Shown here: piece after piece, positions 2 through 60,791 of the stretch
Layout: each line of letters starts with the position of its first letter
Position numbering within the stretch: position 1 is the first letter of the stretch
DNA from: a virus
Reading direction: 5' to 3' (one strand)
Virus record (IMG/VR): IMGVR_UViG_3300044638_001843
Location: 5,067-69,066 of that record
Length of the DNA stretch: 64,000 bases
The notes under the pieces: model-generated
Seen by the model: the letters and a program-made list of their open reading frames with translations, nothing else
The model's database searches: none
Told to the model about the DNA's origin: nothing
Made by a program: the position numbers and the translations under genes

Positions 2-2326
2 GAGTATAACCGTGCCGTCGATGAAGGAAAGCCTGAGCAATTACTACTTGAAAGCGCAGTTATTCATCTTACACCTTTCTATCAAAAGTGGATTGACACA
101 TGTTCTAATAACCGCAAGTCGCCTGATTGGTTAGCACCATTACTTTGTGTTGGTGCAGCTAAGATGGCAGACATTACTATTAGAAATGTAATGCGCTTAT
201 TCCTAACTAGGAATACCATCCAAAGCTTTGATGATACAATGGGCATTCCAAGCAATGCACCAGTAGCACAACAAGTAGCTAAGCTTATTGCTGATGATGT
301 TATTAACATTGTATCCTATCAACAAGCAAAGAAGAAGTTCTCAGAAGATTGGAGAAAGCAATCCAAGTTCATTAAGAACTGGACAATCAAGCGGTGCAAA
401 GCATTTACTAAAAAGGTTGGATCTATTCCAAAGCTAAAGGCTAAGGAAAAGGAAGACCTTGGGCATAACATGCTACGCATTGCTCTATCCAGTGATATCC
501 TAGTAAGTAGGGTACATTGGAATGGAAAGAATCGTAAGTCATTACTTGTTTGTTTTGCTCCTTGGATTCTCAAGGAACTAAGCAAGCGACATGAATTACT
601 AGAAGCAGCATGTCTTGTATATCGTCCTATGATCTGCCCACCTATCCAGCACACAGCAAAGGAAGATGGTGGTTTCTTATCTCCCTGGATCCGTAAGAAG
701 ATGATCAAGCGATATCATCCTGTTGGTGCAAACCCAAAGGATTGGGACTCAAGGCCAAGCGAGTTAGTTCTCCGTGGTCTTAATGCCCTCAGCCATACTG
801 AGTGGTCAGTAAACAAACAAGTCTATGATGTAATGAAGACTATGTTTGAGAATGACTACAAGCTTGCTAACCTACCTGCATTTACCTTTAAGGATTATGC
901 ATTCAGTAGGCCATACCCGGAGGGAGGGACAAAGGAAGAGCAAGCTAAGTGGATGCAGGAATCTAATGAAGCGTGGGGTGAGTGGTATAAAGAAGAACAA
1001 GCTAGAAGTAGAATGATTGTAAGACTACAGCTAGCTAAGAAGATGCTAGACTGGGGTTTCTTCTACATGCCATACACACTAGACTTTAGAGGTAGAGCCT
1101 ACTCAGTATGTGAATTGCTATCACCTCAAGGTGTAGACTTTGATCGTGGACTTGTTCACTTTGCTTTACCACGCAAGCAGACACCGCGTGGTTTGTTCTG
1201 GTTGAAGGTACACCTAGCAAACCTATTCGATCAGGATAAGATTCCATTTGAAGATCGTGTTAAATGGGTAGATGATAATGCTGAAATGCTTATTGCAATA
1301 GCAGCTGATCCCTATTCAAACAAGCAATGGATTGATGCTTCAAAGAAAAAGAATAAATCATTCCAACGTCTTGCTGCTATCTTTGAGTTTGCTCGTACCG
1401 ATGGTATGACACAGCTCAATATTCAAATGGATGGTGCAAATAATGGTGGTCAACATTGGTCTGCTATTATGCGTAATAAGAAACTTGCTGTACTTACAAA
1501 CCTAATTGATTCAGAATCTCCTCAAGATTTGTATCAGTTTGTTGCAGATGCCAGTACAGAATACATGAAGCAACACCAAGAAAATAATTGGTATCAGGTA
1601 TTCTTAATTAACTGGGATAATAAACTACCAAGGGCTGTAGCCAAGCGTCCTACTATGTGTGATGCTTATGGTCTTACATTCTATGGTATGCAGAAGTATG
1701 TAAAGCAAGAAGGCCATGTTGATTGGGTTCCAAAGGAATCCAGGGGTGGTGCTGTAGTAGAACTAAGCAGAGCTATTCAAGCTGGCTTGGGAGAAACTAT
1801 GGAGTCACCCAACAAGGGTAAGGAATGGTTGCGATCTGTTGCAGACATTCTAAACAGTATCAATAAACCTTTTGTATGGACAACTCCCAGCGGGTTTGAA
1901 GTACATCATGTGTACAATCAAGTGTTAGAAAGGGTTTCCTATGCCGAACTATTCAACAGGCAGCAGTTGGTATTCTCAACTGTTACGGAAGATCTCGACG
2001 GCAAGGCACAATATCTGGCGATTTCTCCAAACTTTATCCATGCGCTAGATGCAGCTCATATGTTTATGACAATTGGAGAAATGCTTAATCAAGGTATGTC
2101 TGCTTTCTCAATGGTACATGATTCCTTTGGAACATATGCACCTGATGTTGATGAGATGCACTCCATACTAAGAGAACAGTTTGTTAAAATTCATCAGGAG
2201 AATCAGCTTGAAAACCTCAAAGAAGAAATTGAAAAGAAATACAAAATCTTCCTTCCCGACTGTCCACAACCAGACGGAGAGTTCGATGTTTCCGAAGTAC
2301 TCGGATCTAAATATTTCTTTGCCTAA
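2..2326 (+). CDS. T7-like single-subunit DNA-directed RNA polymerase (5'-truncated by window edge)
   Basis: Frame is open from position 2 (EYNRAVDEGKPEQLLLE...). Motifs in canonical order: DFRGRAY...SPQG, motif A QMDGANNGGQH, QDLY, motif B RAVAKRPTMCDAYG, SPNFIHALDAAH, motif C MVHDSFGT, C-terminal YFFA. Confidence 0.97.
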   Translation, partial: EYNRAVDEGKPEQLLLESAVIHLTPFYQKWIDTCSNNRKSPDWLAPLLCVGAAKMADITIRNVMRLFLTRNTIQSFDDTMGIPSNAPVAQQVAKLIADDVINIVSYQQAKKKFSEDWRKQSKFIKNWTIKRCKAFTKKVGSIPKLKAKEKEDLGHNMLRIALSSDILVSRVHWNGKNRKSLLVCFAPWILKELSKRHELLEAACLVYRPMICPPIQHTAKEDGGFLSPWIRKKMIKRYHPVGANPKDWDSRPSELVLRGLNALSHTEWSVNKQVYDVMKTMFENDYKLANLPAFTFKDYAFSRPYPEGGTKEEQAKWMQESNEAWGEWYKEEQARSRMIVRLQLAKKMLDWGFFYMPYTLDFRGRAYSVCELLSPQGVDFDRGLVHFALPRKQTPRGLFWLKVHLANLFDQDKIPFEDRVKWVDDNAEMLIAIAADPYSNKQWIDASKKKNKSFQRLAAIFEFARTDGMTQLNIQMDGANNGGQHWSAIMRNKKLAVLTNLIDSESPQDLYQFVADASTEYMKQHQENNWYQVFLINWDNKLPRAVAKRPTMCDAYGLTFYGMQKYVKQEGHVDWVPKESRGGAVVELSRAIQAGLGETMESPNKGKEWLRSVADILNSINKPFVWTTPSGFEVHHVYNQVLERVSYAELFNRQQLVFSTVTEDLDGKAQYLAISPNFIHALDAAHMFMTIGEMLNQGMSAFSMVHDSFGTYAPDVDEMHSILREQFVKIHQENQLENLKEEIEKKYKIFLPDCPQPDGEFDVSEVLGSKYFFA

Positions 2327-5150: not shown

Positions 5151-5173
5151 AGTAGGGGAGTAATCCCCTATGA

Positions 5174-5247
5174 AGAAGGGTGGCTGAAGTAGATAGAGCG
5201 CATGCCTTATAAGCGTGAATATGTGGGTGCAACTCCCGCCCCTTCTA
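5174..5247 (+). tRNA. tRNA-Ile (TAT), atypical T-loop
   Basis: Acceptor AGAAGGG/CCCTTCT + A; anticodon arm CATGC-CT TAT AA-GCGTG; T arm GTGGG-TGCAACT-CCCGC; no encoded CCA. Confidence 0.7.
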
Positions 5248-5297
5248 TTTAGGCCAAGGTGTTCTTGGCCTGTTTTTATCTCATAGGAATTAATGCA

Positions 5298-5852
5298 ATG
5301 CCTAATTGGTGTATGAATGAAGTGCGTATTTCCGGGCCGTACTCGGAAGTACATGAAATACTAACTAAGTGTGGTTACTACAGTAATCAAGAGTTCAAGA
5401 TGAATAGCTTTATCCCAATGCCGGATGAAGTTCGTAATACTGTATCACCCATGCCAAAGACTGAAGAACAAATCCTAGCAGAAGCAAAGAAGTATAACTG
5501 GCTTGTATCAGAAGTTAACGATGCGCTTAGCCGTGCTATTACTTCAGAAGAAGCAGAACGGTACAATGAAAACTACCGTAAGTATGGTGCGCATGATTGG
5601 TATGATTGGGCTATGAAGTACTGGGGTGTCAAGTGGGATCTATCAGATGTTTCTTGGGTTGAGGTTGAACTACCTGATCCAGGAGATGCAAAGTCAACAG
5701 ATGATGCAACCTTTACCATTAACTTTGATACTGCCTGGGGTCCCCCAGATATGTTCTACCATTTCCTTTCTAAGAATTACCCTAACTGCCATATCTCATG
5801 GTTCTACCATGAACCAATGATGGAATTTGCTGGATACCTAAACAATGAATGA
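5298..5852 (+). CDS. MPNWC-type phage protein (DUF1281/YubB ferredoxin-like)
   Basis: MPNWCMN start, DWYDWAMKYWGVKWD, FDTAWGPP, YHEPMMEFAG motifs. Confidence 0.7.
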   Translation: MPNWCMNEVRISGPYSEVHEILTKCGYYSNQEFKMNSFIPMPDEVRNTVSPMPKTEEQILAEAKKYNWLVSEVNDALSRAITSEEAERYNENYRKYGAHDWYDWAMKYWGVKWDLSDVSWVEVELPDPGDAKSTDDATFTINFDTAWGPPDMFYHFLSKNYPNCHISWFYHEPMMEFAGYLNNE

Positions 5853-6273
5853 ACTAATTGCTCAACAGTGGGTTACTGCTCTGCGTAGTGGAGACTATAA
5901 GCAAGGTAAGAGTGTACTACATAATCAAGATACTAACACTTATTGCTGCCTTGGTGTTCTCTGCGACTTGTATGTGCAAGAAAACAACAATAGAGATTCT
6001 TATTGCCAACAGCGTATGCTTAGTGATACCTCAATTGTTACATGCTTTGGTGATTCTACTGGTACTTTGCCAAGCGATGTTCGTATTTGGGCAGGTATTG
6101 GAGATGACAATGGACAGTTTAAGTACAACAAACCCATCCCAGGTCGTGATACTTCATACTTTAGGGATGAAGATACTTGCTTGCTCACCAGTATGAACGA
6201 TGGCGAGTACGGCCACGACTTTACCTTTGAAGAAATTGCAAACATTATTGAAGAACAATGGAGACAGCTATGA
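5845..6273 (+). CDS. Hypothetical phage protein
   Basis: WVTALRSGDYKQG...CCLGVLCD...MNDG...TFEEIA pattern seen in small phage proteins. Confidence 0.7.
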   Translation: MNELIAQQWVTALRSGDYKQGKSVLHNQDTNTYCCLGVLCDLYVQENNNRDSYCQQRMLSDTSIVTCFGDSTGTLPSDVRIWAGIGDDNGQFKYNKPIPGRDTSYFRDEDTCLLTSMNDGEYGHDFTFEEIANIIEEQWRQL

Positions 6274-6506
6274 ACTTCGGTATTGATCCTAATAATCGGG
6301 ATCGCTGTGTTATCCAGGCCCCCTGTGATCTTGCTTATATGCAGAAGCAGCGTGATCTTCTTTGGAAGATCTACTCTGATTCCCTGCTCTCTAGTGATGA
6401 AGATCTTGCTTATCTCCGTACCACTATCGGTTTTCTAGATCACTTTATTCACGGCGTATACTTTGTAGCTGCTGAATATCACACCGCTAACAGGAGTATT
6501 TATTAA
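6270..6506 (+). CDS. Hypothetical protein
   Basis: ATGA overlap with upstream stop; GGAG RBS. Confidence 0.6.
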   Translation: MNFGIDPNNRDRCVIQAPCDLAYMQKQRDLLWKIYSDSLLSSDEDLAYLRTTIGFLDHFIHGVYFVAAEYHTANRSIY

Positions 6507-6848
6507 ATGCTTATTAAGTCAAATGAAAAGTTTGTCAAGAAGTTTAAGATTCCCTTTGTTTATTATCATCTTTGTATATCTTTTAAGTTAAACAACGAAC
6601 AAGATCTTTATGACCCTGTTGATTGGATCATGGGAAAAGATTGTACCTACGGTAAAAATAAGAAACGCGCTAGTGCTTTCAAGAAGTTTAAGCTTCTTGA
6701 ACCCGACACTGGATATAATCTTATGACTCACGAAAGAGATCTTACTTTCTTTCAATTAACAAAAGAACAGATACGGTATCTTGTCAACACTTATAAGAAT
6801 AGTCCATTCCGTATTACTTATCTTGCTTGTGATATAGATGACGAATAA
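6507..6848 (+). CDS. Hypothetical protein
   Basis: 113-aa ORF abutting upstream stop; AGGAG RBS. Confidence 0.6.
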   Translation: MLIKSNEKFVKKFKIPFVYYHLCISFKLNNEQDLYDPVDWIMGKDCTYGKNKKRASAFKKFKLLEPDTGYNLMTHERDLTFFQLTKEQIRYLVNTYKNSPFRITYLACDIDDE

Positions 6849-7071
6849 ATCTAATACATTGGTATCAATGCAATTGTTAGGATTGCGTTTGGCTATCATG
6901 GTACTCAGACCGTTGCTGTATCTGGTAGCAAGTATCACTTGGCGGTTGGATGAGGTATACTACCGAATGAATGAATTGCGCAACCGTCTAAATAAAAAGG
7001 TAGAGCAACACAAAGCAAACAAAGCACTAGATCGCATTGCACAATTCGATCAGGAGAATGGATTACTATGA
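6838..7071 (+). CDS. Hypothetical protein
   Basis: 77-aa ORF tiled between neighbours. Confidence 0.5.
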   Translation: MTNKSNTLVSMQLLGLRLAIMVLRPLLYLVASITWRLDEVYYRMNELRNRLNKKVEQHKANKALDRIAQFDQENGLL

Positions 7072-7256
7072 AACAAGAAACACATCATACAATTTTAGTA
7101 CTACCGGATGGAGAAACTTGGTCTACTATTTCTGGATGTTCTGTTCTTGTTATAACAGACAATCAATTTAAAGACCTATGTGAAGACAGAATTGATGCAA
7201 GAGATTTAATGGCTACTCAAGTAATCTTACTTAGTCATCTTAAAAATCTTGAATAA
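7068..7256 (+). CDS. Hypothetical protein
   Basis: ATGA coupling; 62 aa. Confidence 0.55.
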   Translation: MKQETHHTILVLPDGETWSTISGCSVLVITDNQFKDLCEDRIDARDLMATQVILLSHLKNLE

Positions 7257-7262
7257 TTAAAC

Positions 7263-7331
7263 GAGATGGTAGCCCAAGTAGAGGCAGGTAGACAATACCA
7301 CACAGTGTAGGTTCAAGCCCTACCCATCTCA
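7263..7331 (+). ncRNA. tRNA-like element with aberrant anticodon arm
   Basis: Acceptor GAGATGG/CCATCTC + A, D arm GCC/GGC, T arm GTAGG-TTCAAGC-CCTAC; anticodon arm only GGTA-GACAA-TACC. Confidence 0.65.
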
Positions 7332-7335
7332 ATAT

Positions 7336-7409
7336 ATCTCCATAGCTCAACTGGATAGAGCAACAGCCTTCTAAGCTGTAGGTTGCTGGTTCAAGTCCAG
7401 CTGGGGATG
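7336..7409 (+). tRNA. tRNA-Arg (TCT)
   Basis: Full cloverleaf; ACAGC-CT TCT AA-GCTGT; GCTGG-TTCAAGT-CCAGC. Confidence 0.93.
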
Positions 7410-7410
7410 C

Positions 7411-7492
7411 GGCTCCGTGGCGAAACTGGCATACGCAGTAGACTTAAAATCTGCCGCCGCAAGGCGTGGGGGTTCGATTCCCCCCGGAGTCA
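7411..7492 (+). tRNA. tRNA-Leu (TAA)
   Basis: GGCTCCG/CGGAGTC acceptor; GTAGA-CT TAA AA-TCTGC; long variable arm CGCC-GCAA-GGCG; GGGGG-TTCGATT-CCCCC. Confidence 0.93.
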
Positions 7493-7494
7493 TC

Positions 7495-7567
7495 GCCCTC
7501 TTAGCTCAGTTGGTAGAGCAGTTGACTTTTAATCAATCGGTCGTAGGTTCAAATCCTACAGGGGGCA
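7495..7567 (+). tRNA. tRNA-Lys (TTT)
   Basis: GCCCTCT/AGGGGGC acceptor; GTTGA-CT TTT AA-TCAAT; GTAGG-TTCAAAT-CCTAC. Confidence 0.94.
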
Positions 7568-38074: not shown

Positions 38075-38841
38075 AAGAATTTATTGCTTCAGTGTTGTTT
38101 ATTTCTATTATTTCACTTGTTAATTATTTATTCCCTTCAGAAAATCTTTGCTTCTTGCCTATTGCCCTTGGAGCTATGTCATTAGCTCAGGGTGTTATGG
38201 GTGGTATGGCAGCAAGTGCAAAAGCAGAAAGAGAAAATGAAGAAGCCCTAGCTAAATGGGGTGCAGCAACTGTACAGAAAGCTTGGAATAATTCTAAAGC
38301 TCAGCTAGAAGCCGTACAGCAGTTTGAAAACCAACTTAAAAAGAATAGACAAATATCCGAAACAGCTTTTGCTTATAACTATGATGCAATGGGTGCTGCA
38401 AAAGTTGCTAATACAATGAAGCAAGAACAAACATATAATCTTGCAGCCGCTCAAAGAGCCGCTTTAACTTCTTCTGTTGGTGCTAGAGGTTTAGCTGCTA
38501 AATCAGGATCTACTACAGCTATGTTAATGGCTCAAGCCAAGTCTTTGATGGAAGAAAATGGTAGACAAGAAATGGAATTTGCCCAGCAAGTTAAGAATAT
38601 CAATACCCAAACCAAGAATATGTTGAACAATCGAACAGAGAATGTATTTATTGCTGACTTCCAGGGTTATGATGCAGCTCCACAGCTACAGGATACTGGT
38701 TCTCCATTAGTTGCTGGCATTATGTCTGGTGTTTCTGGAGCATTTGGTGGTATGTTAACTGGTGCAAACCTTTCTAATGCTATGGGTAGTGGTGGTATAG
38801 GTGGATTGTTTGGTATGAGTGGTGGTATTTTAGGAACATAA
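38062..38841 (+). CDS. Internal virion protein (gp14-like)
   Basis: Ala/Gln-rich helical protein with Gly-rich hydrophobic termini; precedes large internal proteins; start uncertain. Confidence 0.65.
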   Translation: MGMVKEFIASVLFISIISLVNYLFPSENLCFLPIALGAMSLAQGVMGGMAASAKAERENEEALAKWGAATVQKAWNNSKAQLEAVQQFENQLKKNRQISETAFAYNYDAMGAAKVANTMKQEQTYNLAAAQRAALTSSVGARGLAAKSGSTTAMLMAQAKSLMEENGRQEMEFAQQVKNINTQTKNMLNNRTENVFIADFQGYDAAPQLQDTGSPLVAGIMSGVSGAFGGMLTGANLSNAMGSGGIGGLFGMSGGILGT

Positions 38842-38856
38842 ACCTGGAGGTTAATA

Positions 38857-51900: not shown

Positions 51901-54900
51901 TATTATTGAGTATCAACACAATACAATGGATAAGGATGTAACACAGTTAGACTTTAATTACTTTGGTGGGTTTAATCCAAAGATGTTTAAGGGTATGCGT
52001 GGAAGTCCAACATACTACAATCTTCTTACAATGTTGTCTGATGCATCAGAACAACTAGGAAGTCTTAAGTATGGTCTTACTGTTTCATCAAGAACTAGAG
52101 TAGCAGGACCCGACTCGCAACCTATTGACGAAAACACAAGAACACTACCGGTAACCGTACAAGCTATGGATGCTGTTAACCTTGTGTTTATTCTTTACAA
52201 CTTAACAAAAGTAAAACAAGTAGCTACTGAATTAGTTAAAGCTAGAAATATTGCTGGTGTTGAATTTGATCCTGCTGGACAAGTAATACCTGAATCAATC
52301 CCAGCAAACGCAGCAGTTACATTGCTACCAGAAATTCTAAGTAGACCAGAGTTTACAGAAGCTGACATAAGATCCGTAGGGCTATATGTACTTTATAATG
52401 AGTATCAAAATACTGCTGAGCTTGTTGTTGATAAACCCACGGCTAATACAATGGATATTCAAACAGCCATTGGTCCAGTCCCACAAGTAAATGTTAATGA
52501 TAGTAAAACAAAGTATGCGTTCACACCAGAAATGTTAAACTCATTGTTACTTGCTTTAAGAAACTCTGTTGTACTAAACCAGGCTGAACTTGCTTATGCT
52601 ACTAATAAATCAATTGGTGAAAAGAAGTCAAACCTAGAGCGTGGCAATCTACAAAGAACATTAGAATATTACAATGGGGCTAGAGAACTAAAAGCCGATG
52701 AAGCTACAGTTTTCTCGGCTCTCCATGCTGGACTATCTCCACTGTATACTTTAGATGGTGGTATGTATGATGCCCGATATAATGTTCAGTATGAAATTTT
52801 AGATTCTATTAGATACTTAGCCAAAGAAAACTTTAATTTAATTTCTACTAAGTATTTAGATAGTCGATCTACACCGTTTACTGTAAAAGCATATGAACTA
52901 GCTTTGCTTATGCCACTTCAAAGAGCTATAGCAATTGCTGAAAATAACAATCTTAAGTCTGCTTTAAATACTATTAACAGTACTTTAAATAATAATCCAC
53001 AAGAGATTAGACAGCTATTACCAATTATTTCTTTGGCTATATCAAAGCCAACAATGGAACTAAATGCTATTAAAGCTCTTGTTGATTATACATTCAGTAG
53101 AGAAGGTATTTCAAAAGCCAAAGTTGATGCCCTAACTAGTGATATTCAGATTCTTTTAAATGTAGTTAGAAGCATTACAGATCCACAGTCTAATGAGTTC
53201 TATACACCAGTTAGAGCTTTCTTACAGCGGCTAGATGTACCAACTGATAAACTAAATGAACTAGATGCTACTGTTCAGTTTATTGCTTATCAGGAAGAAA
53301 GAGGTAAGAAACTAAACGCAGAACAACAGAATAAAGTTAGACTAGCCGTTTCTCACTCTATTAAAAACTTACAAGAAGATTCTCAATTAAGTCTTTCATT
53401 CTATGGAACTGGACCAAAAGAATCAGCTAATAAGTTTGGGAATGAAACAATATTCTTGTCTACATTTGTAAATTCAGGTGAACAACTAAATAATCAAATT
53501 AAGTCTTTAGGATTGGATGCACTAACAGAACAGATGTATAGAGCTATGATTGGATTTATTTTACATAAGCATCCAGAACTTGAAGGTCACTTGACTATTA
53601 GCATAGATGATGTTGAAGGAAATAGATTAGCTAAAATCCGTAAGGTTAATGATGTATTTAATATTGTCTTTGCTAAGTCTCCAAACACAATTAAAGCAGC
53701 AGTTGCTGGTAAAACAACTGAACAAGCTATTGAAGTAATAGCACATGAGCTATCCCATATTGCTTTAAACTATTCTAAGATTAGAGATAGAATTGGTTAT
53801 GAAGAAGCAATTGAAAGCTTAATGACAGACACCGGGCAAGAAGCAATAGAAAAAATGGTTACTAATGCTTTTGCTGGTGGGGTGCTAACTAGAAATGAAA
53901 TCACTAAACTAGTTTCTTACTATCAACAAAACTTGGAAGAAGCTTTGGTTATGTGGGGAAGCCAAATGCTTATTACAAGAGCAATGGGTAAAGATCGTGT
54001 TGAGCTAAAGGCTATAGAGGAAGAAAACAATATAGCTAGTAAGGTTAATTCTTGGTGGAAGAGAACCTTTAAATCTATTGAATACTTTGTAAATAATCTA
54101 GTTACATTCTTAGATGAAATGACTGGTAGTAGATTTGTTGGTGTATCAGACAAAGTAAACAGAGTCTTTAATGGATTCTTTGATGCTACTTCAGATCTTA
54201 GAATGGAAGACAAAGCCGTATACGATGATGTACTTGAAGAAAGTTTTATTATCTCAAATGCGGATGTATATTATAATCCTGGTTCAACATCTACTGAACG
54301 TACTGCTTATCTTGAAGAGCAAGAAAGAAATCAGAATCAGTACAGAAGATTAACCCAAGAGCTTAGTACACTGGATCCAAACTCAGCAGAATATGCAAGA
54401 GTTAAAAGAGAACTAGACTCTATTAGAGATAAGTGGCAAAATAATGTAGACCACTTAGGTATCTCTGATGAACTATACTATGATACATTAACTAGACTAC
54501 GCAACAGAAATGATGTTGTAGGTCGTGAATTTGATTATGCAGAAACAACAGAAGAAGAGATTGTACTAGCAGATCACATTATTAGAAAGCTGTCAGAGGT
54601 TCGTGGCAAGCGTGTCGATAGCCCAGGTACAGCTGCGTATCTAGCTAGACAAATGATGAATCTATTCTCAGGCACTGTGTCTATGCAAGACGATGGACAT
54701 GCAAGAAATAGATTAATCCAAACACTACAGAAGATTTCTACTTCTGTTTATCTTGTAACTGGTAATCAATCTGGCCAAACCTATAACTCTGCTTTTGGTA
54801 TTATTGTATCACTAGCGCACTTAATTGATGCCGAAGCACAAACAGTAGATTCATACTTTGAAGGTAACGGCGGATTAGATGGTATTAAACAAAACCAATA

Positions 54901-57900
54901 CCAAGTAAATCTATTGGTTAATCAAGTATCTTCTGTTTATAACCAAATTGTTTCAGAGTTTTCTTCAGCAATCCCAGTACCAGGCGCAACTAATAGATCT
55001 GGAGATATTATCCTAGAGTCATTTAGTTACCTAGCCAGTGGTAAGATTGATCCTTCATTTAATGAAAAGGAACAAGCTGCTATCCGTAGACTTGGAGATA
55101 CATATCGTAAGTCTTCAGAACTATTACATGGAATAATTACAGATGCTAATCTAAAAGATAGATCAAGACCATTCCATGATAGCTACCTTGCATTCAAGTT
55201 AGATATTGATCAGTTTAGAGAAGAAAAGAATAAAGCTGGTTATCAAACAAGAAGAACGCAGTTTATTCAATCTGTATCTTCTTTAATCAAAGCAAAACAA
55301 CTTTCACAGTTACAAGATCTTGATAGAGTACATCCGGTTACATTTATGTTGACTTCCGGGTTACCAACACTTAAGACATCTAACTCATCAGACATGTCTT
55401 CAGAACAAGAGTTTATTAGCTTTATTGAAAGAAACGCAAGTGGATCTACAAATCCAAATTCAGTAGAGGCTATTATATTTAACTCTATTCTTTCTTATGC
55501 TGCTCAGGTTAAAGAAGGATCTGTTGATTTAGCAACTAAAAAGGATCTCATTAGATCAGGTGCAACTGTTGGAAACTCGGTTGCATTGAAAGATTTAAAG
55601 AAAGGCTACAAGGCTTTACTAGAAGCAAGCACTAGTAGAACAGCTACTGTAACTGGATTGCTTACAGCACATACATCAGGTATTACCCCAGAACAAGTAA
55701 AGATAATCCAGAATGCAATAAAGAATACCATTACTTCTGATATTGGCAATCCACCCAATATGAAAGCAAAGCTTCAAGCTATGCGTTCTGAGAGATTCCC
55801 AATTAAGATCAAAGAAGAAAGAAATATCTTTAGTGCATCTACAAATACAATTCCAGAACTACTGGCAATAGACTTCTTAAATACTATTGGTTCTTCTGCT
55901 GCTATTACTTATAAGGATGACATCAACCTAACAATAGATGATATCTTTGGTGATAACTTTACTGAAGTACTTGGCGTAGAGGAAATGAGATCTATTCGTA
56001 GTGGCTTCTCCAGAGACATAAGATCTATTATTAAATCAATTGGATCTGGTTTAGGTCAGCAAGCTGTATCAAGTTCATTGATTTACAAGATGACTGGGGT
56101 ACAAGGGTATGATGTTCTTAAACTAATTAGGACTCTAAAGGCATATGTCGATGGAGCCAATAGACCAACTGGATCTCATATATCACAGGGTCAGTTTGAA
56201 AGAACCGAACAAGGTGTAAGAGCTAAACCCCTATCACAAGCAGAAGTCAAGTTACTTAGTGATGCCTTAACAGTATTGGAGCACAAGTATCAGTATATGT
56301 GGAACATGCGTTCTGCTGTATCTGGTGATGCCATTGGTAAGAATGCAATTAAGTTTACAACACAAGCTGCCCACCTAATTTGGGGTGGTAACCAGATTGC
56401 CGCTGGTATTCTTGTAGACTCTTCAGCAGCAGCCGTTGGTGCTATGATGCTAGGCGGTGCTGGTGGTGTACTTGGTTTCTATGGCAGATACATTGGAGAT
56501 GTCCTTAGATTAAGCTTTGGTGCATTTAGTGATGGATGGAAACAAACCCAGGTTCGTGGTGACTTTGCCGACTTTGCAGAAATACTTTGGGATACTAATA
56601 GTAACTTTGTTGAGTCATGGGAAAAGTTATATGGTGAAGTAGACTTTACTAGAAAAACCGGAAGACTGGCTAGTAGATTCTTAAGCTTTAACCAAGCACT
56701 AAATATGTCAACATCTATCTCTGCAAGAACAGCTTTGGCTAAAACTGCATTAGTACAACTCAATAGACAACTAAATACTAACAACCTAGAAGAAGTAAGA
56801 CGTATGCTTATTGATGGTGAATTGGAATCTGGTAACTATAGAGGATATGTAACTCTGATGAAAAAGCTAAAGAACAACGGCTTTAGAAAACTATCTTCAC
56901 CTGAAACAATTCTACGAATGAAAGCTGCTGGTATGTTTGAGGTTGGGGTTATCGAAAGCCTTAAGTTCTTAAAGCAATCAGGACCAATTAGTATTTCTCA
57001 GTATATGGACAAAATCCTAGATCTTGATAAAGATTTTAGCGTTAATGTAGATGGTGTTACCGTAAATAAACAAATGCTAATACAAGCTGTAGGAGCTATT
57101 GAAAAGTTCCAAGACTTGGCAGTTAAACAATCATTAATATCTTCTTCAGCTTTTGATGGTATAACAGATGATTCTCCACTAAGCAAGTTCTTAAGCTTGT
57201 ATAGATCATATTCAATTCTATTTGCTGGTCAGATGTTACTACGCAACAGTGCCAGAATGTCTACATCAAAGATGGCTGGACTCATGTTGGTATATACCAT
57301 TACCGATATTATGTATCAGACTATGCTTGCAGCAGCCAGCGGGTTCCTTGCTGGGGATGAGATTGAAAGATTACTAAGGGGTGAACCATCTGAAAAGGTA
57401 ATTAAACTTATTGCTAAAGCAGCAGTAAGAAACCCCATGTTTACTTTACAGGGCAACTTCTTGTTGGATACTACCTTGTTCTTGGCAGATACAGTTGCTG
57501 GTAACAAGGGATTAGAACCAGAGATTGCACCGCTAGGTGTTACTGCTATGGTACGATTACTAAAGAACCTAGCAACCAATACCAATACCTTTATCAATGC
57601 ACAGTCAGATGAAGAAAGAATTAAGTCAGCTTACAATGGTGGATTATATTTACTACCAATACTAAATCAAGCTTGGTTTAAAACTTTAATTAATCAGGGC
57701 TTAGCTACAGAAGCAAAGAAACAAACAATGGGTTCCTTTGATTCTGGAAGACGCAATAGTGAAGGTAGACCCATGAATACAGCATTTGCTACAGCTTATG
57801 CTGAATACGAAAACATGCAACTACCTACGCCAAACAATATAGCACAGGCTATACTTAAGTCATTGTATCAAACTGAAATGAATAACAAACTTCAGCAATA

Positions 57901-58087
57901 CATGCATCAGTTTAAAAAGAAACAAATGCCAAACCTAGGTCTAACAGCTCCAGAAACTCCAGTACCAGAGAAGCCAGTAGAAACAACTTCTACCAGCGAA
58001 GTCATGGTTGGACCTAAGCCAAGCACTGGTTCATCTCTACAAAAGGAAGCAACAACACCAATTAAAGCTCCAGACTCACTGAAGTAA
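45980..58087 (+). CDS. Giant virion protein, putative virion RNA polymerase with DEDDy exonuclease domain and HEXXH motif
   Basis: 4035 aa, AAGGAG RBS. FDIET/GFNNVGFD/YSRND; VVHDS; FDFDFNGVHH...DVGTRGVANL...DDFY; RDFFKAAVLPRLYQG; RDLAGGRMY...SYQG; HELSH. Confidence 0.75.
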   Translation: MGKCSEEVLNKIREELKSSGAEPETINTVVSLFEKSVETDASADLVSKTLTNSLFTTSDIEKLNKLISKFRRAKGDITKVTNDDLSEFTFLWSKWQAYMEGKVLIAEGFKTKETLELKKKLRKLESKFLSEGKIKEARTLNRLIRKIEATEKQNRNAGRFIRNIEFEGRLEKTKALLNAVNASYEFEASNNETIKKLNNTRFALVGELQRETDPEKKKEIQKKIDENVKETTTKTNEILLSKAFRKQQKADSTGQISLYEAVKELSSEIDKNSSTYRLALNELIDSRNTLEHDKQLFELAKQGIQVLNTSKALLDAIRKEKGGKVTVAELKAVIGDLGVSIDQLIIDTHNKVNPKEKAKSLKGSTELDNNTLSSIFNTLANLAIDQAFSNGIALGFEFSPEDQMLADNLKAASNNMDIENEDQVNNDTVMPKARTASKAKEETLSTREQKIKEFKEGTDFKKLYVMLKQALERVETLRKLPQFSEHISRDMVLAALGPQLHLLNPDIYFSSAVVTATSVARLTAPALSSLPVPPALEKAFANLGMDPRAIKGLPEVANPDEYARNWDRVISFDIETKGDEIFMISIRHSATEERLDPSIEQLVSNPAKGSIGNFTAYSKEDLLRFLRSLELMQNMGWKVAGFNNVGFDLASIAKSIGTEEASNLAARVALRSYDMYAWIKMQYGATVNLDNLATATLGRGKIKGVTGTSVVDLLLAAKTEEETSKALEYSRNDSDLVFEIIENLRSNPSRNLTVNVNNVDKSTVNLSLSNPLQTWQLAIFHSNTNSNFNGFFLEYNAAGVQPAINNFVGESSNAERTSRLLFNTEAVRDQLLLHMSLSLRADPDTAVVGETLIKEAERLTKKEQEVLVTQMKLMRTHRQAGIEAKKALLGSDGEPKFILSIIEGEPKYIEATTSTTAESQYEAAVIEAFNQFYLDMAGDRVPADQIVSRMNEKIVEYGFREKTGSETQADYIKAFINEVILPSVKAKAITDFGNGNTDYAPAWNVGYAIAQIAMGRRDGIMDSRFIEEQAFVTPLSTMNDLENNAKNLSESIKVRQPHRKNVSMFAPISLKQYEEVYNDWALRQRINHILNGDRYKGLSEEELRKKLADIRGAEYMRRVSVLAKSTTIIPDITPTVNNRQLFNELPTIEDTLDRTLETLLDLPAIGVAVVHDSVFLRTKVVVDNDGKSLKFSRLEASPGAWSARSIINGQLVAQLGWYQTYGITDGAIKTSLEETAKGIQAGKLQLKNIDYFDFDFNGVHHMLMLMLAYNIPNDVGTRGVANLIKNLNLSEWWSTVDANKDDFYTQVSLQVQKNIAEQYVKLSERKQTAPLTKDEQAKFDSLEKWNAILNSMDETGSKRTFRDFFKAAVLPRLYQGGIPSISQALFEKTQDPEFKETFPSIVINNADIGFLLKDAEFSGVIGLIKLIDETINISVDGRTKLKQQLDEWNQKLFYKDGVQRHHAVLKEMGKSTDFGRGIIDDTTLTNLINLRIDAAARMLVKPSDIMQFGSLESAINNKKQRLAKLWADRINAGREYVRTKGGTLTTRGEYIKLAEIMGRDPQAWKDLPLLAAINTANRTPLKIREEAIREATEEFGVNVNDYLGNSGNYLFFQSLARDLAGGRMYTTPSGISYQGPSYSQVATPAPFDPADVDTTALWEIDEFSFARLARENPEEARRYITQLVLQQYELRLATEYMANDYNDKTLETPERFLEDWSRISKKEREFYARRRSIETLRTAQAEAQIESVVTPGGARPNAKNWIKEARKRGLLLEQGLRYLASPSRVIGDTSKAFEESNQKMGIFAFRPKTADIDITDLPIYALAELAIERRIDKENENWVRASKKNKAPSSVTDIIPEQAIGYTHTVNPESLPYVPRELMSLGLLTNLTDVSTKLAVEQARIQSRLYRFAKQNGLMHLLPRGRENWAAVHFIRMAHVRGGYPLLRKLGKVYNADENTLVSEYNLGVSKFLTSMFDIIEYQHNTMDKDVTQLDFNYFGGFNPKMFKGMRGSPTYYNLLTMLSDASEQLGSLKYGLTVSSRTRVAGPDSQPIDENTRTLPVTVQAMDAVNLVFILYNLTKVKQVATELVKARNIAGVEFDPAGQVIPESIPANAAVTLLPEILSRPEFTEADIRSVGLYVLYNEYQNTAELVVDKPTANTMDIQTAIGPVPQVNVNDSKTKYAFTPEMLNSLLLALRNSVVLNQAELAYATNKSIGEKKSNLERGNLQRTLEYYNGARELKADEATVFSALHAGLSPLYTLDGGMYDARYNVQYEILDSIRYLAKENFNLISTKYLDSRSTPFTVKAYELALLMPLQRAIAIAENNNLKSALNTINSTLNNNPQEIRQLLPIISLAISKPTMELNAIKALVDYTFSREGISKAKVDALTSDIQILLNVVRSITDPQSNEFYTPVRAFLQRLDVPTDKLNELDATVQFIAYQEERGKKLNAEQQNKVRLAVSHSIKNLQEDSQLSLSFYGTGPKESANKFGNETIFLSTFVNSGEQLNNQIKSLGLDALTEQMYRAMIGFILHKHPELEGHLTISIDDVEGNRLAKIRKVNDVFNIVFAKSPNTIKAAVAGKTTEQAIEVIAHELSHIALNYSKIRDRIGYEEAIESLMTDTGQEAIEKMVTNAFAGGVLTRNEITKLVSYYQQNLEEALVMWGSQMLITRAMGKDRVELKAIEEENNIASKVNSWWKRTFKSIEYFVNNLVTFLDEMTGSRFVGVSDKVNRVFNGFFDATSDLRMEDKAVYDDVLEESFIISNADVYYNPGSTSTERTAYLEEQERNQNQYRRLTQELSTLDPNSAEYARVKRELDSIRDKWQNNVDHLGISDELYYDTLTRLRNRNDVVGREFDYAETTEEEIVLADHIIRKLSEVRGKRVDSPGTAAYLARQMMNLFSGTVSMQDDGHARNRLIQTLQKISTSVYLVTGNQSGQTYNSAFGIIVSLAHLIDAEAQTVDSYFEGNGGLDGIKQNQYQVNLLVNQVSSVYNQIVSEFSSAIPVPGATNRSGDIILESFSYLASGKIDPSFNEKEQAAIRRLGDTYRKSSELLHGIITDANLKDRSRPFHDSYLAFKLDIDQFREEKNKAGYQTRRTQFIQSVSSLIKAKQLSQLQDLDRVHPVTFMLTSGLPTLKTSNSSDMSSEQEFISFIERNASGSTNPNSVEAIIFNSILSYAAQVKEGSVDLATKKDLIRSGATVGNSVALKDLKKGYKALLEASTSRTATVTGLLTAHTSGITPEQVKIIQNAIKNTITSDIGNPPNMKAKLQAMRSERFPIKIKEERNIFSASTNTIPELLAIDFLNTIGSSAAITYKDDINLTIDDIFGDNFTEVLGVEEMRSIRSGFSRDIRSIIKSIGSGLGQQAVSSSLIYKMTGVQGYDVLKLIRTLKAYVDGANRPTGSHISQGQFERTEQGVRAKPLSQAEVKLLSDALTVLEHKYQYMWNMRSAVSGDAIGKNAIKFTTQAAHLIWGGNQIAAGILVDSSAAAVGAMMLGGAGGVLGFYGRYIGDVLRLSFGAFSDGWKQTQVRGDFADFAEILWDTNSNFVESWEKLYGEVDFTRKTGRLASRFLSFNQALNMSTSISARTALAKTALVQLNRQLNTNNLEEVRRMLIDGELESGNYRGYVTLMKKLKNNGFRKLSSPETILRMKAAGMFEVGVIESLKFLKQSGPISISQYMDKILDLDKDFSVNVDGVTVNKQMLIQAVGAIEKFQDLAVKQSLISSSAFDGITDDSPLSKFLSLYRSYSILFAGQMLLRNSARMSTSKMAGLMLVYTITDIMYQTMLAAASGFLAGDEIERLLRGEPSEKVIKLIAKAAVRNPMFTLQGNFLLDTTLFLADTVAGNKGLEPEIAPLGVTAMVRLLKNLATNTNTFINAQSDEERIKSAYNGGLYLLPILNQAWFKTLINQGLATEAKKQTMGSFDSGRRNSEGRPMNTAFATAYAEYENMQLPTPNNIAQAILKSLYQTEMNNKLQQYMHQFKKKQMPNLGLTAPETPVPEKPVETTSTSEVMVGPKPSTGSSLQKEATTPIKAPDSLK

Positions 58088-58170
58088 ATCGACTTAGGGG
58101 TCAGAAATTTCTGAGGGGTTAGGTAAGGAATTAGAGGGTGGATATCCCCCTCTATCCCCCCCAATCAAAC

Positions 58171-58210
58171 AAAGCAACCAGAGAACTAATAATTCTCTGG
58201 TTGTTTTTTT
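58171..58210 (+). terminator. Intrinsic terminator after the giant gene
   Basis: AAAGCAACCAGAGAA-loop-TTCTCTGGTTGTTTTTTT. Confidence 0.8.
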
Positions 58211-58286
58211 CCCAGGTAGATTCCCTACCTATCCCTATCACTGGGGTTCAGTGAATCTAGGTCCTATAGACCAGAAAGATTAGGGG

Positions 58287-58430
58287 ATGCAAACCTACAA
58301 GTTTGAAATCCTGCATAGCACACGCGGACGGGTTACCGTTACAGTCAAGGCTCATAGCCTTGAGAAGGCGTGGATGCGCCTTTACGTCAAGCACACGCCA
58401 GTCCACATTGTTCGATGGTGGCAGTGCTGA
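58287..58430 (+). CDS. Small early protein (47 aa)
   Basis: MQTYKFEILHSTRGRVTVTVKAHSLEKAWMRLYVKHTPVHIVRWWQC; stop abuts the first hairpin repeat. Confidence 0.55.
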   Translation: MQTYKFEILHSTRGRVTVTVKAHSLEKAWMRLYVKHTPVHIVRWWQC

Positions 58431-58471
58431 GAAATTCCCCCAGGTTAATCCCTGGGGGATTTCTTTATGGG
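58431..58471 (+). promoter_or_regulatory. Hairpin + TTATGGG element, copy 1
   Basis: GAAATTCCCCCAGG-TTAATC-CCTGGGGGATTTC-TTTATGGG. Confidence 0.7.
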
Positions 58472-58535
58472 TAGCATATGCTGCCTCTGTTAGGCCCCTA
58501 CAGTCTTAGGGGTTGTCTTGCAAAGGAATAAGAAG

Positions 58536-58742
58536 ATGGATATTCTTATCACTCGATTCCTGACAAACGAGGAAACCGTTTTGTACTCAGTAGAAAATGA
58601 CGGTTACACCGTTCCCCGCGAGATGTTCGCTCTTTCCCCAAAGGAAAGCAATTTGTGGACGTGGAAGGAAGTTTGCCACTACGTTTGGTACTGGTCTCAC
58701 GAAACCAATGTCACTGTCACCGTCCGCTACAAGAAAGGGTAA
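58536..58742 (+). CDS. Small early hypothetical protein
   Basis: AAGGA upstream; MDILITRFLTNEETV... Confidence 0.6.
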   Translation: MDILITRFLTNEETVLYSVENDGYTVPREMFALSPKESNLWTWKEVCHYVWYWSHETNVTVTVRYKKG

Positions 58743-58780
58743 GTCGTTTTCGGGTAAGATGTGATTAATGGCTTGCCCGA

Positions 58781-58819
58781 AGCATCCCCCGGAGAAATCC
58801 GGGGGGTGTTTTTTATGGG
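58781..58819 (+). promoter_or_regulatory. Hairpin + TTATGGG element, copy 2
   Basis: AGCATCCCCCGGA-GAAA-TCCGGGGGGTGTT-TTTTATGGG. Confidence 0.7.
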
Positions 58820-58913
58820 TTGAATGTAACCCAAGCCCTACTGTTGGGCAAGCTCATGGCTAGAGCTATATAAGTCAAGCCCTAACTCCTTCTTATAGAG
58901 AGGAAACCACCCA

Positions 58914-60791
58914 ATGAACATTCCATTCTTGGGTAAGGGTGAGTATACCGTTCACGACCTGGTGACGCTCATCCAGCCGGATGCGGTCCTTGCGGGGATC
59001 GACCCGGCATCGTTCTCAGTTGTTGGCGGCATCATTGGTAAGATGCTGTCAACGGGAGCTTACAAGATGCACTGCGAGGTTGTTCGTGGTGGATCTCAGG
59101 TGTTCAAGGCTTGGACGCTTCGGCGGCAGGCTGAGGACATCCTGAAGCTCATGCCTGAGTGTCGCAGCTGGTCTAGCCACGCAAGTGGCATGGCCGCAAT
59201 GGACAAGGTTACCTGGGTGCGCGATGAGCGCATGTTCAACCTGGCCATTGATGCTGCCTGTCTGCTGGGCAAGAAGCCCTATGAGGTGGTTCACAACGGT
59301 CGTTCAAATACCGTGATTGAACCTGTGTTCCTCATGGAGTACTTGGCTAAGTGGCAGATCGAAAACTTGGCCAAGCTTCCTTCGGGAAGCGAGATCAAGT
59401 TCTGGCACTCGGCAGATCGTCGTGGCGGTCGCTTCTATGCGTACAACCGCGACGGACTGGTTTTGCCTACGATGTACGATGGAGATGTGTGCGCTCTCTA
59501 TCGGCTGGCAGAAGGCAACCCTGTCACCAAGGAAGACATTGAGCTGTGGTCTACCCTGGTCGAGAAGGAGTACGGTGTCACGCGGGAAGAGATGTGCCGC
59601 GTGGCAACTGATCGTGAGTTTGCTCTGGGTTTGTTTTCCAACCCAATCGGCAAGCTGAAGTCAGTTGGAAGTAAAAAGCGGAATGTGCTGCGGTTCATCC
59701 AAAACTGCTACCACATCAGTGACGCTCTTGCATCCGGCGTGTCTCATGGGCATATTGGATATGATGCCCATGCTCAGGGTCCGGTGGCTACCTCCTTGGC
59801 CATCGGTGGGAGCCGTACCTGTCACGATGTGATGATGGGTCGGAAGGTCTACGAAGGCATTACGGAGTGCCTTGGCATCGTTCCGTCGGAGGTTGAGTCG
59901 TTTGTTCGTTCCCGTGAGTGGGCAAAGAATGTTCTCACGGTGACGAACTACACCGGGCGTGTGTTGGGCCAGGTGTTCCTCTACGGGATGGGCGGAGAGC
60001 TGGAGGACGAGGATGGTTCTGTCCTCGCTCCGTTCAACCTTGCAAATGCTGTGATCAAGGTTGACAAGCTCCGCTCTGGTCTGGAGCTGATCAAGGACTG
60101 GCCCCAGTCCAAGATCAAGGAACTGGCAGCATCTGTTTCTGCCATGTCGGTGAACGCGGCCCTTCGCTACGACAGCAAGCTGTTCAAGTTTGGTGACCTG
60201 TGGTTGGCTCACCAGAAGGCGAAGGAGGAGGTGTTCTCATACACCTACGGTGGGATTACGTTCCCTCACTTCAAGATCGCACCCGCGCTCTCATGGTTCC
60301 CGGTTGATGAGGCTACCAAGATGCGGGATCTGCCTCAGATCTCCGTGTCCCTGCCTCATTCGGTGCTGGATCTGTGCAAGAAGAACGGGTGGCCTACGCG
60401 CTTCCAGCCGCGTATGGCTCCGTTCACCAAGGGCTTCACTGATGACAACGGGCCTGTTGTGCCGTGGTCAGACAGCGGAGAACCCAATCGGGTTGATACC
60501 CCGAACGGGTCCTTGGTGGCAGTTACCACTTGTCAGGATGGCAATGTCCTGACTAACACCATCAATGAGATGGGTGGACAGGTGGCGACCACGCGGCACG
60601 ATGCGATCACTGTTCGCATTGGTCCAGCCCTGAGAACGGTGCAGGAAGTGTACACTCGTCATATGTACCGCGAGTGTGTTGGCAACTACCGTCAGGTCCT
60701 TCGGGAAGAGTTGGGCAAGTTGTTCCCCAACATCACTGAGGATGTGTCGGAAGAGCAGTTTGTTCTTGCCGCCAAGAACATCTTCCGCTGA
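58914..60791 (+). CDS. Highly divergent T7-type single-subunit RNA polymerase (625 aa)
   Basis: FWHSADRRGGRFY; motif A IGYDAHAQG; motif B REWAKNVLTVTNYTG (R-x3-K-x7-Y); TCQDGNVL; motif C TRHDAI; canonical order; GAGGA RBS. Confidence 0.72.
   Translation: MNIPFLGKGEYTVHDLVTLIQPDAVLAGIDPASFSVVGGIIGKMLSTGAYKMHCEVVRGGSQVFKAWTLRRQAEDILKLMPECRSWSSHASGMAAMDKVTWVRDERMFNLAIDAACLLGKKPYEVVHNGRSNTVIEPVFLMEYLAKWQIENLAKLPSGSEIKFWHSADRRGGRFYAYNRDGLVLPTMYDGDVCALYRLAEGNPVTKEDIELWSTLVEKEYGVTREEMCRVATDREFALGLFSNPIGKLKSVGSKKRNVLRFIQNCYHISDALASGVSHGHIGYDAHAQGPVATSLAIGGSRTCHDVMMGRKVYEGITECLGIVPSEVESFVRSREWAKNVLTVTNYTGRVLGQVFLYGMGGELEDEDGSVLAPFNLANAVIKVDKLRSGLELIKDWPQSKIKELAASVSAMSVNAALRYDSKLFKFGDLWLAHQKAKEEVFSYTYGGITFPHFKIAPALSWFPVDEATKMRDLPQISVSLPHSVLDLCKKNGWPTRFQPRMAPFTKGFTDDNGPVVPWSDSGEPNRVDTPNGSLVAVTTCQDGNVLTNTINEMGGQVATTRHDAITVRIGPALRTVQEVYTRHMYRECVGNYRQVLREELGKLFPNITEDVSEEQFVLAAKNIFR

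Follow-up and report, generated by a model that had tools for sequence, protein, structure and literature searches.

The window analysed here, a stretch of 64,000 nucleotides comprising bases 5067–69066 of the 69,066-bp IMG/VR virus record IMGVR_UViG_3300044638_001843 (rated complete by CheckV), belongs to an uncultured podovirus from fresh water with a genome of about 68 kb and T7-type replication and morphogenesis modules. On this T7-type backbone the phage encodes two single-subunit RNA polymerases (RNAPs), a canonical T7-family enzyme, RNAP1, and a compact enzyme of 625 amino acids, RNAP2, and a third RNAP is probable within a giant protein of 4035 residues. A sequence-only reading of the window had claimed three distinct T7-like RNAPs in one genome; all three open reading frames (ORFs) lie at the positions it gave and two of the enzymes are now confirmed, whereas the one in the giant protein has advanced only to probable. 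With moderate confidence we favour the view that T7-type modules are combined here with an N4-like transcription plan built wholly from phage single-subunit RNAPs, and from the three enzymes we infer a transcription cascade that is plausible.

RNAP1 is an ordinary member of the T7 family, as had been supposed for positions 2–2326 of the window. Its full ORF occupies genome positions 4954–7392 and encodes 812 amino acids; it starts 112 nt before the window, which holds the last 774 residues. The protein matches Pfam RNA_pol (PF00940) with an E-value of 2.2e-83 (281 bits, cut-off 22) and PHROG 414 with 1.4e-155, and in a search of the whole record with PF00940 (E ≤ 10) it was the sole match, at 276.9 bits. 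When compared with the 2741 phage records that matched it, RNAP1 shows less than 60% identity to every one, the best 15 listed being 27–31% identical, while the T7-type RNAP of a relative, L025 (positions 17918–20383), is 83% identical. Applied to each of the three proteins, the Pfam RNA_pol profile thus picks out RNAP1 and matches neither RNAP2 nor the giant protein.

RNAP2 escapes the searches that depend on sequence families. It has no match in Pfam (E ≤ 0.1), in PHROG (E ≤ 0.01) or among PDB sequences, no significant BLASTP similarity to RNAP1, and no tblastn match in 50,697 phage records. Searches of the PDB by phmmer and hmmsearch with RNAP2 (P0001), the giant protein (P0002) and the queries A1 and A2 returned only chance matches (E ≥ 0.11). 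A profile-profile comparison (hhalign) of RNAP2 (A1) with gp15 and gp16 of phage N4 gave probabilities below 1%, and one of the RNAP2 family with nine virion RNAPs (vRNAPs) of Schitoviridae gave P 0.51, which indicates that hhalign is blind at such a distance. Relatives are few: a word-indexed search found two clusters, at 96% and 62% identity, and an exhaustive HMMER search of 1.84 billion representatives found ten, six of them full-length (624–657 amino acids) and 31–36% identical. RNAP2 and all eight full-length relatives are single chains of 624–657 residues.

The nine-row alignment of this family carries the motifs of a single-subunit RNAP in canonical order and conserved: DxxGR (DRRGGR, 168–173), motif A (D284), motif B (K338 and Y346), the QD aspartate (D542) and motif C (H562-D563). 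Invariant in 9/9 sequences are S333, W336, K338, Y346, T347, R561, H562 and D563, whereas D284 is found in all eight rows that cover it, R173 in 8/8 and D168 in 7/8; both catalytic aspartates, D284 and D563, are therefore conserved among homologues. The AlphaFold2 model built from this alignment has a mean predicted local distance difference test score (pLDDT) of 86.1 and a predicted template modelling score (pTM) of 0.85, and displays a right-hand thumb-palm-fingers fold superposable on the T7 and mitochondrial RNAPs. Foldseek with this model gave 73 matches in the PDB at E ≤ 1e-3, and the 50 listed all belong either to T7 RNAP or to the mitochondrial RNAP of human or yeast (E 1e-9 to 1e-6); in BFVD there were 43 matches at the same threshold, led by phage RNAPs and with pieces of N4-type vRNAP at ranks 27, 29 and 38. 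Foldseek and VIA together matched T7, mitochondrial and N4 RNAPII structures, with family-A DNA polymerases as the next-best class, although identity to N4 RNAPII (6DT7) and T7 RNAP (1S76, 8DH1) is only 11–12%. Only about 165 residues precede DxxGR, so most of the promoter-binding N-terminal domain of T7 RNAP is absent. Judged by its modelled fold, RNAP2 is a genuine compact single-chain right-hand RNAP, and its size and predicted fold are those expected if the two subunits of N4 RNAPII were linked in one chain; the assignment of the 625-residue ORF to the single-subunit RNAPs has thus held, by fold and in the absence of any sequence-family match.

The candidate for a third polymerase, the giant protein, has homologues in only five clusters among 5.8 billion proteins, at 99, 67, 46, 46/45 and 25% identity and 4027–4068 residues in length, and in the alignment of the six sequences 353 of 4035 columns (8.7%) are invariant. 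It is without a Pfam, PHROG or PDB sequence match and without a match to the gp50 families of Schitoviridae (PF21894, PF21867), for which the control genomes likewise gave none; a tblastn search of the 50,697 phage records with residues 1008–2207 and the exonuclease-like part found nothing, and no further relatives came to light when viral contigs were scanned with the domain alignment. It is a nearly cysteine-free giant polypeptide, with one Cys in 4035 residues (the N4 vRNAP has none in 3500), and the three proteins encoded directly upstream (259, 1452 and 918 amino acids) contain 1, 0 and 1 Cys, in comparison with 1.2–2.7 Cys per 100 residues in RNAP1, the primase-helicase, the DNA polymerase, the ribonucleotide reductase and RNAP2. 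These three Cys-poor proteins have no PHROG match and, like their giant neighbour, match no family, and their genes follow the terminase gene at the end of the structural module. In an excerpt of PMC3821669 the absence of Cys from the N4 vRNAP is tied to passage through the periplasm. Gene position and Cys depletion suggest that the 4035-residue protein is probably ejected with the phage DNA. Its lone Cys is residue 4; a Cys at position 3–4 recurs in 6/6 sequences, and the most distant homologue, P0020 (25% identical), has a second one.

The best-supported polymerase core of the giant protein, residues 1100–1460, is narrower than the region of about 49.4–52.2 kb to which the sequence-only reading had assigned it (Table 1). 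In order along the chain are TVNNR (1135–1139), VVHDS (1169–1173), motif A (D1253-x4-G1258-x2-H1261), DFY (1302–1304), motif B (R1362-x3-K1366-x7-Y1374-x-G1376) and a possible pair of QD and motif C aspartates (D1407 and D1428). The putative catalytic D1253 is invariant in 6/6 homologues, as are G1258, H1261, D1302, Y1304, R1362, K1366, Y1374 and G1376, and further invariant columns are N1137-N1138-R1139, V1170-H1171-D1172-S1173, Y1251-F1252, N1257, H1260, G1377, D1407 and L1426-I1427-D1428. Motif A has the pattern of T7 D537, G542 and H545, and its D-x4-G is common to the N4 vRNAP, RNAP2 and six T7-like RNAPs. The pattern R-x3-K-x7-Y-x0-1-G occurs once in the 4035 residues, at 1362, and is kept in 6/6 homologues, so that motifs A and B are present, collinear and conserved. 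The distance from A to B is 113 residues, against 94 in T7 and 111 in N4; that from A to DxY is 49 (T7: 32) and that from DxY to the Lys of motif B is 62 (T7: 60). When the protein was shuffled 20,000 times, the composite A-DxY-B pattern arose 10 times and motif B by itself 967 times, counts which are indicative only, as the pattern was picked after the sequence had been seen. A second T7-like block lies at about residues 1565–1665, where AINTANRTPLKI (1572) shares 7/12 residues with T7 AINIAQNTAWKI and is followed by DLAGGR (1618–1623) and SYQG (1632); P0020 has FINNAQNVGLKLN at this place.

Profile and language-model comparisons lead to the same part of the chain. When the giant protein was scanned with a T7-like profile in 24 half-overlapping windows (hhalign), the three best were residues 1441–1760 (P 0.009), 1281–1600 (P 0.010) and 1121–1440 (P 0.022), and the other 21 had P ≥ 0.17. 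The alignments are in register: residues 1252–1319 fall opposite T7 514–586, which includes motif A and DIY, at P 0.022, and residues 1569–1669 fall opposite T7 316–479 (AINTANRTPLKI with AINIAQNTAWKI, DLAGGRMY...SYQG with DWRGRVY...NPQG) at P 0.009, the best of the 24. When the DxxGGR region of RNAP2 was compared by hhalign, the block at about 1565–1665 again came first (P 0.054), and the candidate windows align in register to residues 608–688 of the N4 mini-vRNAP in a profile of nine Schitoviridae vRNAPs, the P value for the domain being 0.27 against N4 alone and 0.01 against the nine-sequence profile. A motif B matrix built from three reference families, the giant family excluded, placed position 1366 first in the giant protein (8.5 bits, reached by 34.5% of shuffles) and the homologous site first in P0020 (14.3 bits, reached by 3%); in leave-one-family-out controls it ranked motif B first in RNAP2 and in the N4 vRNAP. 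In the ESM Atlas, residues 1100–1460 had top hits of 0.92, 0.92 and 0.91, all to PF00940 clusters, with 181, 185 and 172 of 256 features shared, and at least 24 of 30 hits were to RNA_pol or N4 vRNAP clusters (20 to the RNA_pol set, 4 to the set of RNA_pol with N4_RNAP_helical, and further rows to N4 vRNAP sets). A longer query, residues 1100–1720, scored 0.79. The motifs, the weak in-register profile alignments and this language-model lead together make a third polymerase probable: a very divergent RNAP core probably lies around residues 1100–1460, with further pieces possibly at 1565–1665, and our confidence that the giant protein carries an RNAP-type core is reasonable, if well short of firm.

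Directly after the giant gene follows a GC-rich island of about 5 kb that contains RNAP2. The island has a GC content at third codon positions of 0.67; the value is 0.34 for RNAP1 together with the replication genes, 0.27 for the structural genes and 0.22 for the genes of the ejection proteins. Within their codon families, the codons ATA, AGA, TTA and AAA, which correspond to the four phage tRNA genes, account for 1–5% in the island, 6–30% in RNAP1 and the replication genes and 23–70% in late genes. That the island nearly lacks these codons agrees with an immediate-early class whose translation precedes the making of the phage tRNAs. The four tRNAs decode exactly these four A-ending codons, which become commoner in three steps as one passes from island to late genes. 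Sites resembling sigma-70 promoters show no enrichment within the island, where there are 4, shuffled sequence giving 6.9 ± 2.8.

The search for syntenic genomes showed that the layout recurs, with the island at the same place in four further lineages (L002, L005/L024, L023 and L025) whose RNAP2 is 62%, 32%, 35% and 34% identical, respectively. L002 and L025 show an uninterrupted order of giant gene, GC-rich island with RNAP2, small genes and T7-type RNAP (813 and 822 amino acids, respectively), and in L005/L024 and L023 the order of giant gene and island is seen. The same placement in all of them indicates that the island is not an assembly chimera. L025 differs from the window very unevenly, its T7-type RNAP being 83% identical, its giant protein about 24% and its small RNAP 34%; either the modules evolve at very different rates or they are exchanged between lineages.

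The genes of the island are separated by five hairpin elements with the consensus TCCCCC(T)AGG, a loop of 4–7 nt and CCT(A)GGGGGA, followed by TTTCTTTATGGG. L002 carries three copies, L003 four and L005 six; the stem variants, for example CCCCCGGA/TCCGGGGG and CTTCCCCAGG/CCTGGGGAAG, are compensatory and keep the pairing, and the variant of hairpin 2 is also present in L005/L024. ATGGG is conserved beyond the T-run, which suggests that the elements mark an initiation site as well. Downstream of RNAP2 lies a Pistol self-cleaving ribozyme, which recurs at the same relative place in L025 (12838–12904, 65.2 bits), L003 (14311–14363, 43 bits) and L002 (9480–9557, 40.5 bits), that is, in three of the five relatives' loci scanned, the other two ending before that place.

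Contigs from RNA sequencing bear on the same region. The small contigs of the metatranscriptome runs X19 and X20, just 10 and 8 in number, fall on the giant gene as well as on RNAP2 and the island, and may reflect DNA carry-over. In run X11, which is labelled as cDNA and whose library may hold DNA, a 5.6-kb island contig has a depth of 107, against 1–35 on the giant gene. The deepest X19 contig (depth 39) ends at position 63000, inside the Pistol ribozyme. One X11 contig joins 60836 to 61225, dropping a 102-residue ORF between two hairpins, and other joints also fall at hairpins (58255–61194); the elements may be recombination points between strains.

In the cascade that we propose, the injected enzyme of the giant protein would transcribe the island first, whose genes, written in host-friendly codons, would need none of the phage tRNAs. 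The hairpin-TTTCTTTATGGG elements would signal starts, stops or both. Once produced from the island, RNAP2 would drive the next class, comprising small early genes, RNAP1 and the tRNAs, and RNAP1 would transcribe the genes for replication, structure and ejection, in which codon usage leans more and more on the phage tRNAs. On this scheme we infer independence from the host RNAP. Indirectly, the scheme agrees with the scarcity of Cys in the giant protein and its three upstream neighbours, as in the N4 vRNAP, with the rarity of the tRNA-matched codons in the GC-rich island, with the conserved hairpins between its genes and with its lack of a sigma-70-like excess.

A number of results weigh against a polymerase in the giant protein and against the cascade. 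Neither the Pfam RNA_pol nor the N4 vRNAP families match any of the six giant homologues, and the profile-profile comparisons of the core (P ≥ 0.009, probability ≤ 4.5%) are not significant; in that respect the claimed RNAP domain has fallen short, while its motif strings are present and invariant in 6/6. Decoy windows of the giant protein score as well against the vRNAP profile (27.7 and 26.7) as the candidates (27.6 and 26.6). An hmmsearch with the giant module against 24 known RNAPs mixed with 528 decoys and shuffles returned E-values of 0.4 or more throughout, with four true RNAPs, two of them near-identical, among the top 12, a weak enrichment only. The TxxGR, A and C matrices failed their leave-one-family-out controls, so that only motif B carries weight; the top motif C score in the protein, at VVHDS, comes from a matrix that failed. 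The ESM Atlas recognition value of 1626 is below the mark of 2300 under which high scores are weak evidence. Where the combination of AlphaFold and Foldseek served RNAP2 well, the model of giant residues 1000–2199 from six rows (pLDDT 41.1, pTM 0.31) is unusable, and Foldseek with it returned unrelated proteins at E ≥ 0.04, which are meaningless matches. For the cascade, no repeated candidate for an RNAP1 promoter appears in 23 intergenic regions, where, the island and the ends of the genome aside, an exact 9-mer search turned up nothing repeated that resembles a promoter; four of the five hairpins in the window are called terminator-like and would also fit intrinsic terminators; and contigs cannot show RNA ends.

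The order of the motifs is a further difficulty. Candidates for motif C conflict between VVHDS at 1169, upstream of A, and LID at 1426–1428, and candidates for DxxGR conflict between TVNNR at 1135 and DLAGGR at 1618, downstream of B; with VVHDS upstream of A and a DxxGR-like string downstream of B, either the order is non-canonical or some of the matches are due to chance. One option is a compact canonical core at 1135–1428, in which TVNNR, VHDS (opposite the IHGAN block of T7), A, DxY, B, D1407 and D1428 would follow one another. The spacing of 21 residues from D1407 to D1428 would then equal that from D542 to D563 in RNAP2, at the cost of leaving just 41 residues from motif B to the QD-like Asp. 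Another option, again read from the motifs, is a rearranged core with A and B ahead of the AIN-DxxGR block at 1572–1635. A circularly permuted palm of order C-A-B was demoted because VVHDS can also be placed opposite the IHGAN block, and is kept only within the rearranged reading. A more elaborate form of the latter would have the ejected protein contain an active, rearranged RNAP of the split N4 RNAPII type fused in reverse, with a gp16-like half carrying A and B before a gp15-like half of AIN, thumb and DxxGR, that starts at the hairpin-TTTCTTTATGGG elements, so that with three phage RNAPs the host RNAP would never be needed; we consider this unlikely.

The failure of every profile and fold method to reach significance for the giant protein, together with its non-canonical motif order, would be explained if the phage had only two RNAPs and the giant protein were an ejection or core protein whose RNAP-like strings are due to chance or are a decayed remnant. 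The host RNAP would then read the island, as it reads the early genes of T7, and the hairpins, which are GC-rich stems with a T-run and are called terminator-like, would be intrinsic terminators. Such an account leaves it to chance or decay that the A, DxY and B residues stay invariant down to 25% identity in a protein with 8.7% invariant columns, that shuffling so seldom yields the composite pattern, and that the T7-like profile, the N4-like profile and the language-model neighbours converge on the same 300 residues. As RNAP2 proves, Pfam and hhalign can overlook a true RNAP fold in this phage; ATGGG is kept past the T-run where a terminator would have no use for it, and the island has no excess of sigma-70-like sites; taken together, these points leave the two-polymerase account doubtful, although it deserves serious attention.

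A different identity for the giant module, that of a family-A DNA polymerase-like or other nucleotidyl-transferase acting in DNA end repair or priming during entry, is suggested by the DEDDy-like motifs upstream of the core, as the exonuclease-like domain (572–735) would precede palm and fingers as in Pol I. Motif B (R-x3-K-x7-Y-G) and VHD(S/E) are common to family-A DNA polymerases and single-subunit RNAPs, and family A is the next-best fold class even for RNAP2, the classes being hard to separate. Motif A, however, has Gly five residues past the Asp, as do T7, N4 and RNAP2, at the position taken in family-A DNA polymerases by the Glu steric gate; the neighbours in the language model belong to RNA_pol or N4 vRNAP clusters and not to DNA_pol_A; the DxY and AIN blocks are RNAP features; and the phage already has a Pol A gene. 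We regard this identity as very improbable. Least credible is that RNAP2 and the island are a recent foreign cassette or an assembly chimera outside the phage programme, which we think hardly conceivable: a GC content 18 points above the rest of the genome and the depth of the X11 island contig relative to the giant gene could be so explained, whereas the same place is kept in four lineages with RNAP2 only 32–62% identical, L002 and L025 run uninterrupted from giant gene through island to T7-type RNAP, and the codon gradient has three steps, not two. We therefore retain the reading of two established phage RNAPs and a probable third.

Table 1. Features of the window, by position in the 64,000-nucleotide stretch
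Feature	Position	Strand	Evidence	Details
RNAP1, canonical T7-family single-subunit RNAP	2..2326	+	Pfam PF00940 and PHROG 414	
Four tRNA genes	5174..7567	+	ARAGORN	Ile-TAT, Arg-TCT, Leu-TAA, Lys-TTT
Pol A gene (family-A DNA polymerase)	9283-11004		PHROG match	
Three Cys-poor proteins, candidate ejection/internal virion proteins	38062..45968	+	Cys count, position	259, 1452 and 918 amino acids
Giant 4035-residue protein, candidate ejected virion protein	45980..58087	+	ORF, Cys content	
DEDDy 3'-5' exonuclease-like motifs in giant protein	47693..48184	+	Translation read	FDIET 572, GFNNVGFD 641, YSRNDSD 729
Candidate RNAP core of giant protein	49277..50359	+	Invariant motifs, in-register hhalign, ESM Atlas	Residues 1100–1460
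Second T7-like block of giant protein	50672..50974	+	hhalign	Residues ~1565–1665
GC-rich island (putatively early)	58000..63300	+	GC profile, relatives	47–57% GC, against ~37% elsewhere
Hairpin 1	58436..58471	+		9-bp stem, 6-nt loop, then TTTCTTTATGGG
Hairpin 2	58786..58819	+		8-bp stem of different sequence, 4-nt loop, then GTGTTTTTTATGGG; ~95 nt upstream of RNAP2 start
RNAP2, compact 625-residue single-subunit RNAP	58914..60791	+	Fold and motif conservation	
Hairpin 3	60806..60843	+		10–11-bp stem, then TTTCTTATGGG; 15 nt past RNAP2 stop
Hairpin 4	61194..61231	+		10-bp stem, then TTTCTTTATGGG
Hairpin 5	61829..61863	+		Stem with G-T pairs, then TTTCTATTTG, without ATGGG
Pistol self-cleaving ribozyme	62970..63022	+	Rfam RF02679	43 bits, gathering score 34.5

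The remainder of the genome is of T7 type. All large ORFs lie on the + strand of the ORF map, and the PHROG matches comprise, for replication, the RNA polymerase, a metallophosphoesterase, primase-helicase, family-A DNA polymerase, dNMP kinase, exonuclease and ribonucleotide reductase and, for structure, portal, scaffold, major capsid, tail tube A and B, fibre and large terminase (backbone PHROGs 239, 17, 107, 449, 1052, 267, 446, 457 and 38); by gene content the genome is thus of the Autographiviridae type, with its own T7-type RNAP, T7-type modules and a single coding strand. The four tRNA genes sit between RNAP1 and the primase gene. The ends of the record repeat each other (1–126 equals 68206–68331, and 482–794 matches 68751–69066 at 91%), which implies a genome of about 68.2 kb that is circularly permuted or terminally redundant. 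Lake, freshwater and wastewater metagenomes contain the phage, at least half of the window's sampled words being found in 14 of the 23 runs listed. The exonuclease-like motifs of the giant protein (residues 572–735), which we take to be ExoI to ExoIII, have no family match, and at residue 2589 (53744–53758) the protein has a HELSH zincin-like motif, for which the Pfam SprT-like family is weak (E 0.12 in 2/6 homologues, below the family threshold). A small ORF at 63449–63703 has two W-x3-(S/T)xNP(K/Q)(S/A)P repeats, and a diverged copy lies at genome positions 192–500, at the opposite end of the record.

An excerpt of PMC4496689 describes the programme of N4 as a succession of the virion RNAP gp50, RNAPII (gp15 and gp16, of 269 and 404 amino acids) and the host RNAP, with early promoters that are DNA hairpins centred at −11 with 5–7-bp stems and 3-nt loops. 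The present phage resembles N4 in a giant protein of 3500–4000 residues, free or nearly free of Cys, with a polymerase-like core (here a candidate) about one third along, in hairpins in the region read earliest (here proposed from sequence), and in three successive polymerases (here conjectural). It differs from N4 in that the giant protein has no sequence or Pfam relation to gp50, that RNAP2 is one chain where N4 RNAPII is a heterodimer of gp15-like and gp16-like subunits, and that a T7-type RNAP encoded by the phage itself stands third, where N4 uses the host RNAP with N4SSB. The hairpins have 8–11-bp stems, 4–7-nt loops and a T-rich spacer of 9–14 nt before GGG, and the early-island genes point the same way as those elsewhere in the genome. 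The sequence-only reading rightly noted that the gene set of N4 is a different one, as the backbone PHROGs here are of T7 type and the giant protein has no match of the Schitoviridae type; by sequence, none of the three enzymes appears to belong to the N4 families. With the T7-like phages (Autographiviridae; T7, LUZ100, Vibrio phage 1.204.O) the phage shares RNAP1 (27–31% identity), the PHROG set and genes on one strand, and unlike them it has about 68 kb of genome rather than about 40 kb, a 4035-residue protein where theirs are internal core proteins, an additional RNAP gene, a GC-rich island bearing hairpins and a Pistol ribozyme, and four tRNAs.

The N4-type phages have so far been the sole model for an injected single-subunit RNAP with a second phage RNAP, and the T7-type phages the model of one self-sufficient RNAP; literature searches at the level of titles and abstracts brought up no T7-type phage with a virion RNAP or with three phage RNAPs. 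RNAP2 is among the smallest single-chain T7-type RNAPs, its own relatives being just 31–36% identical, and the codon gradient, which has three steps and matches the phage tRNAs, offers a clean case of temporal codon partitioning. The hairpin-TATGGG elements offer concrete templates for a possible new promoter class. If the third polymerase is real, the strategy of injecting a polymerase would not be tied to the gene set of the Schitoviridae, giant ejection proteins could hide polymerases missed by family profiles, and a phage of this kind may dispense with the host RNAP altogether.

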